The position numbers and the translations under genes are program-made. Positions 11,111 to 11,620 of a DNA stretch of 38,812 bases are shown in pieces (position 1 is the first letter of the stretch; the number at the start of each line of letters is the position of its first letter). Under the pieces are notes generated by a model. It searched no databases. It saw only the letters and a program-made list of their open reading frames with translations, and was not told where the DNA came from. Source of the stretch: Microbotryum violaceum (lineage: Eukaryota); contig LN717261.1 in assembly GCA_001244265.2 (NCBI GenBank), positions 992,001-1,030,812 on the forward strand, written 5' to 3'.

Positions 11111-11314
11111 AGTAGAAGTCAATGTGACCGTGCACCAGTCGCCCGCCATGGCTCCCAATGTGTGGTAGAACCACCGCCGGTGTGACTTGGGTGCACCGTC
11201 ATATTCATCTATTCCTACTGGTTGAGTAGCTCAGCGGTCAGAGCAACTCTGATTAATAGAGTGGACCTGAGTTCAATTCTCAGTTCAGCCAAACTTTCCT
11301 TTGTTTTCCCAATT
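11111..11314 (+). repeat. TRIM 5' LTR (AGT...ATT)
   Basis: 204-bp direct repeat of 11416-11620. Confidence 0.93.
11220..11291 (+). ncRNA. tRNA-like cloverleaf (Pol III A/B box cassette) in the TRIM 5' LTR; nominal anticodon TTA
   Basis: Acceptor GGTTGAG/TTCAGCC+A, D stem GCTC/GAGC, anticodon stem ACTCT/AGAGT with loop GATTAAT, T stem CTGAG/CTCAG with loop TTCAATT; A box TAGCTCAGCGG, B box GTTCAATTC; 72 nt. Confidence 0.88.
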
Positions 11315-11322
11315 TGGTAGCG
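11315..11322 (+). promoter_or_regulatory. TRIM primer-binding site TGGTAGCG
   Basis: Directly follows LTR1; complementary to a tRNA 3' end ...CGCUACCA, the same core as the yeast Ty1/Ty3 iMet PBS. Confidence 0.75.
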
Positions 11323-11415
11323 TCTGTCACTGCCGCAAGGCAAACTAAGATCGGTCACGAGTTGAACAATTGATTAAGTTGGTTGGCTTCAGTTGTTTAA
11401 TCAATTGAAGGGGAC

Positions 11416-11620
11416 AGTAGAAGTCAATGTGACCGTGCACCAGTCCGCCCGCCATGGCTCCCAATGTGTGGTAGAACCACCGCCGGTGTGACTTGGGTGC
11501 ACCGTCATATTCATCTATTCCTACTGGTTGAGTAGCTCAGCGGTCAGAGCAACTCTGATTAATAGAGTGGACCTGAGTTCAATTCTCAGTTCAGCCAAAC
11601 TTTCCTTTGTTTTCCCAATT
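11416..11620 (+). repeat. TRIM 3' LTR
   Basis: 205-bp direct repeat preceded by the purine tract GAAGGGGAC. Confidence 0.93.
11526..11597 (+). ncRNA. tRNA-like cloverleaf in the TRIM 3' LTR
   Basis: Identical to 11220-11291. Confidence 0.88.

Follow-up and report, generated by a model that had tools for sequence, protein, structure and literature searches.

A miniature LTR retroelement with tRNA-like units in its repeats, probably of the Helenus type, inserted in a Copia element of Microbotryum violaceum

The stretch of DNA analyzed here, referred to as the window throughout, comprises 38,812 nucleotides of Microbotryum violaceum (contig LN717261.1, positions 992,001 to 1,030,812, of GenBank assembly GCA_001244265.2) and is a nest of Ty1/Copia elements, among which three families can be distinguished. 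One copy of these, belonging to what we call family A, is interrupted in its GAG-pre-integrase region by a sequence of 510 bp that has the build of a terminal-repeat retrotransposon in miniature (TRIM), with two long terminal repeats (LTRs) enclosing a short core; the family A copy itself ends at 11847, where it is broken off by another Copia LTR. The coordinates of all these features are collected in Table 1. The 510-base sequence is a real, non-coding LTR retrotransposon, and one that was recently inserted. A global alignment of its first LTR (11111-11314) with its second (11416-11620) contains 204 matching columns, a single gap column and no mismatch, which bears out the lengths of 204 and 205 bp proposed in the first-pass annotation of this DNA, and the same relationship is reflected in the direct repeats 11140-11314/11446-11620, at 100% identity, and 11108-11140/11413-11445, at 97%. 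Between them lies the 101-bp core, in which a primer-binding site (PBS, at 11315) and a polypurine tract (PPT, at 11407-11414) could both be recognized, as had been proposed. The longest open reading frame (ORF) found by an ORF scan of the element encodes 63 amino acids on the minus strand, and a protein-word search using this ORF, aimed at finding ORF calls on other copies, returned no candidate. The element also differs from its surroundings in base composition, with a G+C content of 48% vs 59% for the window as a whole.

The evidence for insertion comes from the neighboring Copia copies. The element is flanked by the 5-bp sequence ACGAA on either side, already read as a target-site duplication (TSD) in the first-pass annotation, which had also pointed to an empty site in one sister copy. 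The empty site is indeed there, the number is not one: two paralogous Copia copies, one on each strand, carry a single ACGAA and read uninterrupted (...ATATAGTGACGAAGAGGTAGAG...) through the target site, and because they do, the boundaries of the insertion and the 5-bp duplication are unambiguous. The absence of any substitution between the LTRs agrees with the recent insertion that had been deduced from their near identity, whereas the surrounding Copia copies differ from one another by 2-8%. As for the genome in which this occurred, a protein of Microbotryum silenes-dioicae matches the Copia reverse transcriptase (RT) ORF at 26808-28748 with 98% identity, and Microbotryum supplies the majority of the named matches (124 proteins at E<=0.001 among 8000 candidates scored), which places the window in this genus of anther-smut fungi or in a very close relative.

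Table 1. Positions of the miniature element, its component features and the related Copia sites, in window coordinates.
Feature	Position	Strand	Basis or remark
Host Ty1/Copia element, family A; LTR 9196-9576, TGTGACAAG...TCTCATA; PBS-like GGTTATTCGCC	9196-11847	+	
TSD, left copy, ACGAA	11106-11110	.	empty sites with single ACGAA
5' LTR, 204 bp, ends AGTAG...CAATT, not the usual TG...CA	11111-11314	+	repeat search, alignment
Putative U3, 109 bp, 5' of the tRNA-like unit	11111-11219	+	assignment follows the RNA polymerase III model
tRNA-like unit of 5' LTR; TTA at anticodon position, A at position 33	11220-11291	+	ARAGORN, Rfam, cloverleaf
A box, TAGCTCAGCGG	11227-11237	+	TRGCY/YGG as in Kojima (PMC10886601)
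B box, AGTTCAATTCT	11270-11280	+	read against box motif
T4 run, candidate weak RNA polymerase III terminator (putative function), predicted R end	11304-11307	+	T-run scan
Non-coding internal region (core), 101 bp	11315-11415	+	between LTRs
PBS, TGGTAGCGTCTG, abuts 5' LTR directly	11315-11326	+	sequence
PPT, GAAGGGGA	11407-11414	+	one base ahead of 3' LTR
3' LTR, 205 bp, one additional C near 11445	11416-11620	+	repeat search, alignment
Second tRNA-like unit, in 3' LTR	11526-11597	+	ARAGORN, Rfam
T4 run of 3' LTR	11610-11613	+	T-run scan
TSD, right copy, ACGAA	11621-11625	.	sequence
Empty site, single ACGAA, paralogous Copia copy	17908-17912	+	uninterrupted ...ATATAGTGACGAAGAGGTAGAG...
Empty site, single ACGAA, second paralogous Copia copy	32100-32104	-	uninterrupted ...ATATAGTGACGAAGAGGTAGAG...

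What sets this element apart is that each of its LTRs contains a tRNA-like unit. ARAGORN called tRNAs at 11219-11292 and 11525-11598, both with anticodon TTA, and an Infernal-type check of the LTR, also proposed in the first-pass annotation, gave a clear result with the Rfam tRNA model RF00005, which scored 49.9 bits in each LTR (gathering score 29; E 1.6e-09) over the full model, positions 1-71. The cloverleaf contains 21 pairs, every one of them standard (19 Watson-Crick, 2 G-U), so that the 72-nt cloverleaf with A and B boxes described there stands. Box B keeps G53, T54, T55, C56, the purine at 57, A58 and C61, its sole change from GGTTC being the first G, replaced by A. The A at position 33 of the unit, on the other hand, takes the place of a U that is near-universal in decoding tRNAs. 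With regard to folding, the unit has a z-score of -2.59 relative to shuffled sequences, with 1 of 200 shuffles folding equally well; the core has a z-score of -0.70, with 46 of 200 shuffles doing as well, and a core hairpin considered as a candidate feature, formed by the 11-bp palindrome CAATTGATTAA/TTAATCAATTG, was not distinctive on folding and was dropped. Box A reads TAGCT...CGG, in agreement with the motif TRGCY...YGG.

The first-pass annotation mentioned a class of tRNA-bearing LTR elements named Helenus, with members in fungi, and cautioned that the class might be known. This is in fact the case, as Kojima (2024, PMC10886601) defined Helenus as TRIMs with tRNA-derived sequence in their LTRs and described fungal members with 5-bp TSDs. 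Given a perfect cloverleaf with A and B boxes and a T run behind it, one could ask whether the units might be working tRNA genes, ochre-suppressor-like with anticodon UUA, in which case the element would be spreading functional tRNA genes; a few fungal Helenus families might in fact encode tRNA-His or tRNA-Thr (PMC10886601). We consider this extremely improbable. A tRNA reading UAA as a suppressor would be harmful, and position 33 is an A and not the near-universal U. Furthermore, all predicted suppressor tRNAs of the rust genera Uromyces and Cronartium derive from Helenus, fungal Helenus pseudo-anticodons are usually non-functional, suppressor types included, and Kojima judged functional tRNA encoding by Helenus to be unlikely (PMC10886601). 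The two ochre-type "suppressor tRNA" gene predictions at this locus can accordingly be flagged as false, which matters for tRNA annotation. A metagenome scan with the D-arm and T-arm pattern of the unit was also performed, and all four loci recovered were ordinary tRNA-Met(CAT) genes, dissimilar outside the tRNA; because this result follows from the way the pattern was built, these matches are uninformative on the TRIM or on the isotype of its parent tRNA.

The PBS, which begins with TGGTAGCG at the start of the core, belongs to the class that pairs with the 3' end of a tRNA. Searching the whole window, the PBS 12-mer TGGTAGCGTCTG was found exactly only in the TRIM; when up to 2 mismatches were allowed there were 4 matches vs 3.44 expected, the sole exact one being the TRIM's own. 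The sequence TGGTAGC presumably implies an A1:U72 acceptor end, and TGGTAGCG would fit the 3' end of an initiator-type tRNA; based on these acceptor-end features, the priming tRNA is most likely initiator Met. A further TGGTAGCG at 29879 was discarded as a candidate site, as it lies inside an RT ORF, on the opposite strand, and about 1 chance match to an 8-mer is expected in the window. Self-priming was also considered. Any exact complementarity between 11315-11345 and the tRNA-like unit is shorter than 6 nt, and hence the unit does not prime its own PBS; self-priming was likewise not found in other Helenus (Kojima 2024, PMC10886601).

Every structural feature that characterizes Helenus is therefore present here: two LTRs around a short non-coding core, a total length of 510 bp, which is below the 1000-bp limit, a tRNA-derived sequence with boxes A and B in each LTR, a PBS and a PPT, and a 5-bp TSD, so that the assignment is one made by structure. 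Kojima reported fungal Helenus to possess PBS, PPT, 5-bp TSDs and conserved A and B boxes, and inferred their mobilization by Copia elements (PMC10886601). We regard it as very probable that the TRIM is a Helenus-type element, or "TRIMp3", recently inserted into Copia pre-integrase coding sequence of a Microbotryum genome, and we are highly confident that it is a TRIM of this type mobilized by LTR-retrotransposon machinery. The known fungal families number 113 in Pucciniales, with others in Agaricus, Coprinopsis and Amylostereum, and outside Pucciniales no Helenus was reported in that fungal group, "including Microbotryum, Leucosporidium, and Rhodotorula" (PMC10886601). Kojima's screen of related genomes was, however, seeded with known Helenus consensus sequences (PMC10886601), and because such a screen works by homology, a divergent family of low copy number could escape it. 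Our own search of the available literature found no report of a tRNA-bearing TRIM in Microbotryum, and a word search of the accessible parts of two Microbotryum transposable-element papers returned no TRIM, SINE or tRNA-bearing element beyond a table that lists 0 SINE (short interspersed nuclear element) copies.

How would such an element multiply? Judging from its anatomy, the A and B boxes inside the 5' LTR would recruit TFIIIC and TFIIIB, with RNA polymerase III (Pol III) starting near 11220, just past an A+T-rich patch (11200-11219) that makes up the last 20 bases of the putative U3. The T4 run at 11304-11307, noted after the cloverleaf in the first-pass annotation and found again in our T-run scan, would be weak and partly read through, so that the RNA would span the PBS, the core, the PPT, the 3' U3 and the second tRNA-like unit, and would end at the second T4 run or later, with a length of about 394 nt. 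In this layout, U3 would be the 109 nt of 11111-11219, R would consist of the tRNA-like unit and its trailer (about 88 nt), and U5 would be left with about 7 nt. A Copia-type element would then provide packaging of the RNA in trans, a tRNA (most likely initiator Met) would prime reverse transcription at the PBS with its 3' end, the tRNA-like R copies would mediate the first strand transfer, and a Copia-type integrase would insert the cDNA, generating the 5-bp duplication. The distribution of T runs is compatible with such a transcript. Runs of at least four T residues occur within the TRIM only in the LTRs and not in U3 or in the core, each of the two lying 12 nt past the tRNA-like unit and 7 nt ahead of the LTR end; once past the first of them, Pol III would therefore encounter no other until the 3' LTR. 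Downstream of the TRIM, a T4 lies at 11681, a T5 at 11919 and a T8 at 12458. Because only about 0.8 T4 runs are expected by chance in 510 bp at 20% T, their absence elsewhere in the element is weak evidence either way. A Pol III start, read-through of the first T4 and use of the tRNA as R thus agree both with the anatomy and with the TRIMp3 hypothesis from the literature, under which Pol III transcribes Helenus, Cassandra and Ajax and which is validated only for Cassandra (PMC10886601); for Helenus, the same hypothesis lacks experimental validation according to Kojima (PMC10886601). On these grounds, we would give an even chance to Pol III being the polymerase that makes the transposition template from the tRNA-like promoter.

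Several observations weigh against a Helenus-type element driven in this way. The LTR termini are AG...TT, and those of the Copia elements in the window are TG...TA. The minimum-energy fold of the tRNA-like unit (-23.8 kcal/mol) is not the cloverleaf (-22.0 kcal/mol), which lies 1.8 kcal/mol above it, even if the alternative fold retains the acceptor and T arms. An A at position 33 together with a TTA triplet speaks against decoding, which means that the unit must have some other role. The machinery is equally hard to pin down within the window: all three Copia families use a PBS of the anticodon-loop type (ATA/GGTTAT...), local alignments of the TRIM LTR and core with the window's Copia LTRs and leaders were no better than those with shuffled sequences, and no PBS, leader or PPT common to the TRIM and an autonomous Copia was found for the three families. 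None of the three can be named as a partner, and any autonomous partner would lie outside the window. Lastly, a T4 placed 12 nt past the tRNA-like unit resembles a terminator, and if it is efficient in the host, Pol III would yield only an RNA of about 88 nt that does not contain the PBS.

This last point in particular leads to a different view of the same TRIM, in which the template would be made by RNA polymerase II (Pol II), starting either at a U3 promoter or in the surrounding Copia and reading through, with the tRNA-like unit being a passenger or serving another role. It could, for instance, act as a TFIIIC-bound chromatin boundary against heterochromatin, or as a structured R or tRNA mimic that aids packaging or strand transfer. 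In addition to a T4 that would halt Pol III if efficient, this view is favored by the retention of all 21 cloverleaf pairs, more than the A and B boxes that would suffice for a promoter, and thus a hint that the folded RNA has a function. On the other side, conserved A and B boxes are a trait common to all Helenus groups, the 510-bp length, the lack of other T4 runs and a terminator 7 nt from the LTR end all fit a Pol III unit, and no TATA or initiator evidence for Pol II was obtained. We see transcription by Pol II as a serious possibility, though one that falls short of being probable. Should the family be active, Microbotryum may be a practical organism in which to test Pol III drive.

Whether the TRIM belongs to a family at all was addressed using public sequencing runs. 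The TRIM stretch, or part of it, is present in 20 of the 24 runs listed, and in 17 of these at least half of the sampled words were found; the holder runs belong to 9 studies and carry coded organism labels, A to E. Contigs of four runs, indicated here as X3, X4, X11 and X12, were aligned to window positions 10911-11820. The empty-site form was present in all four, with a joint from 11105 to 11621 that skips 515 bases and has 5 shared letters. The TRIM itself was seen as well: contigs of X3, X11 and X12 match its LTR-core junction, or its first 320 bases, without any difference, and X4 contains a 335-base contig identical across the core and the 3' LTR. In X3, the LTR start is immediately preceded by two different sequences (places 11414 and 11416), of which one, found also in X4, ends in a purine-rich ...TAAGGGCT(AC) similar to a variant PPT, and the other is unrelated and resembles the flank of another insertion. 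X3 and X4 share a variant LTR that diverges past 11460, and one X4 contig passes from the LTR end (11613) to the core (11309) again, which would suit LTR-core units in tandem (LTR-core-LTR-core) or reflect a graph artefact. A second TRIM copy with both of its flanks was not seen in the contigs of X3, X4, X11 and X12.

With respect to the reading of the TRIM as a mobile Helenus-type family, these data also have a less favorable side. None of the listed holder runs is on record as RNA. The 38.8-kb window contains one TRIM copy, and the copy number is probably low, about one to few per genome, keeping in mind that contig depth is not copy number; the per-contig depths are of the same order as those of variant-specific Copia contigs. 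The part of the M. lychnidis-dioicae annotation that is accessible lists 134+5+2 tRNAs and 0 SINE copies. One could argue that we are looking at a one-off relic, that is, a single insertion and perhaps a chimeric cDNA, with the tRNA-like modules found elsewhere (described below) being unrelated tRNA pseudogenes. The single copy in the window would agree with this, as would a low per-contig depth of the core in X3 and X12, unreliable as this is for copy number, and the ordinary tRNA count in the accessible part of the published record for a Microbotryum genome. Such a relic would not explain, however, why at least two other sequences lie directly upstream of an LTR start, nor the variant LTR past 11460 and the X4 contig joining 11613 to 11309, and the TRIM is near-identical in runs of four or more organism labels from 9 studies. 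Moreover, the insertion took the normal route of an LTR retrotransposon, as its identical LTRs and intact TSD show. We therefore find a one-off relic improbable.

The same runs also contain the tRNA-like module in other contexts. In X3, X4 and X11, some contigs of up to 3485 bases resemble the LTR only in a segment that opens with the tRNA-like unit and closes shortly after the T4 run (about 11524-11615, or 11225-11309 as its counterpart); over 66-92 bases they show 5-11 differences, or about 88-92% identity, and they then continue into unrelated sequence for up to 3.4 kb; in X11, the sequence ahead of 11526 differs too. Among the module variants, the change 11258 A>G preserves pairing, with U-G in place of U-A, and 11275 A>G brings the B box to GTTCGA, nearer to the consensus. 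One variant carries 11255 A>T, which makes the anticodon-position triplet TTT, and one module contig alters the conserved C at 11274. The common module corresponds exactly to a predicted Pol III transcription unit, comprising the tRNA-like part and its trailer up to the putative terminator, and these contigs could derive from a parent unit, as bare retro-copies or pseudogenes, or could be LTRs of another family. In the first case, they bear on Kojima's proposal that Helenus originated when a tRNA-derived retroelement inserted into a TRIM LTR. Taking this further, it is conceivable that a Helenus lineage was born independently in Microbotryomycetes, when an LTR captured a bare Pol III unit, and not a SINE, that is still free-standing elsewhere in these genomes, a scenario that we advance tentatively and consider rather unlikely. 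If it were true, Microbotryum would offer a low-copy and recently active element for direct tests of Pol III-driven LTR retrotransposition. Microbotryum can be grown in culture as yeast, and such direct tests are impractical in the obligately biotrophic rusts.

The Copia elements that surround the TRIM show additional features of their own. On the minus strand, 32122-37807 is occupied by a tandem array whose units recur every 1894 bp or so and are 98.6% identical to one another. Its unit consists of a family A LTR and about 1.5 kb of gag-protease sequence, and at the unit junction an internal purine-rich site is joined directly to the LTR start (...CTGGAGGGTC followed by TGTGACAAG); this junction sits 22 bp upstream of the TRIM's insertion site in the other copy. 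The array looks like a gag-only deletion derivative with an LTR-internal-LTR-internal order, which perhaps originated at an internal PPT-like site. At 9455-9576 (plus strand) and 3440-3560 (minus strand), in two Copia families, the last ~55-60 bp of the LTR and the first bases of the PBS are tandemly duplicated (...CTCATAGGTAT... and then ...CTCATAGGTTAT...), and because the same architecture occurs in both families, this suggests a conserved feature of the U5/PBS border rather than an accident. A PBS of the half-tRNA type is found in all three families, at 3120-3146 and 3404-3430 (minus strand), 26258-26285 (minus strand), 12401 (plus strand), and 9574 and 16362 (plus strand). In family C, about 26 nt (GGTTATGAGCCCAACGAGCTACCAGC) are seemingly complementary to the part of initiator tRNA-Met that extends from the D arm to the anticodon loop, and families A and B carry mutated versions of this site. 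In the U3 regions of family C (3600-3760, minus strand) and family A (9230-9400, plus strand), a GGACTTAGGCGCGCG(G/C)A-like motif recurs several times in tandem and may be a repeated regulatory element.

As the Helenus class was already published in 2024, what is new here is the host lineage, which contradicts the "not found" of the defining paper, together with the apparently low copy number, the minority type of PBS and the hint of a free-standing Pol III unit. Our results do not introduce a new kind of element, and instead extend Helenus and the TRIMp3 concept to a fungal class in which the defining paper had found no member, indicating also that homology-seeded screens miss divergent families of low copy number. 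Compared to other fungal Helenus, the element resides in Microbotryum (Microbotryomycetes), a lineage reported to lack them, and its apparently low copy number contrasts with the hundreds of copies of rust Helenus. The PBS of most fungal Helenus is of the anticodon-loop type, with a minority using the tRNA 3' end (PMC10886601), and the TRIM belongs to this minority. Helenus boxes read TRGCY...YGG for A and GGTTC for B and are conserved across all groups (PMC10886601), whereas box B of the TRIM reads AGTTC. Cassandra is similar in being a TRIM with a small-RNA gene of the Pol III type, internal promoter and terminator included, in its LTRs, and it faces the same difficulty of a terminator within the 5' LTR; its transcription was demonstrated experimentally (PMC10886601), but it lives in plants and its unit derives from 5S rRNA and not from a tRNA. 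Ajax, a nemertean TRIM, shares the TRIMp3 concept and the 5-bp TSD and differs in carrying only a partial 5S promoter fragment, in using a tRNA-Leu primer and in its animal hosts. When the TRIM is compared to Ty1 of Saccharomyces cerevisiae, the two have in common a PBS that begins with TGGTAGCG and abuts the 5' LTR, as well as a 5-bp TSD, while Ty1 is autonomous, transcribed by Pol II and bounded by TG...CA termini. Finally, tRNA-derived SINEs (SINE2) are likewise short non-autonomous retroelements in which a tRNA-like head acts as an internal Pol III promoter; they possess no LTRs, PBS or PPT and depend on the machinery of long interspersed nuclear elements, and it is from the insertion of a SINE2 into a TRIM LTR that Helenus has been proposed to originate (Kojima, PMC10886601).

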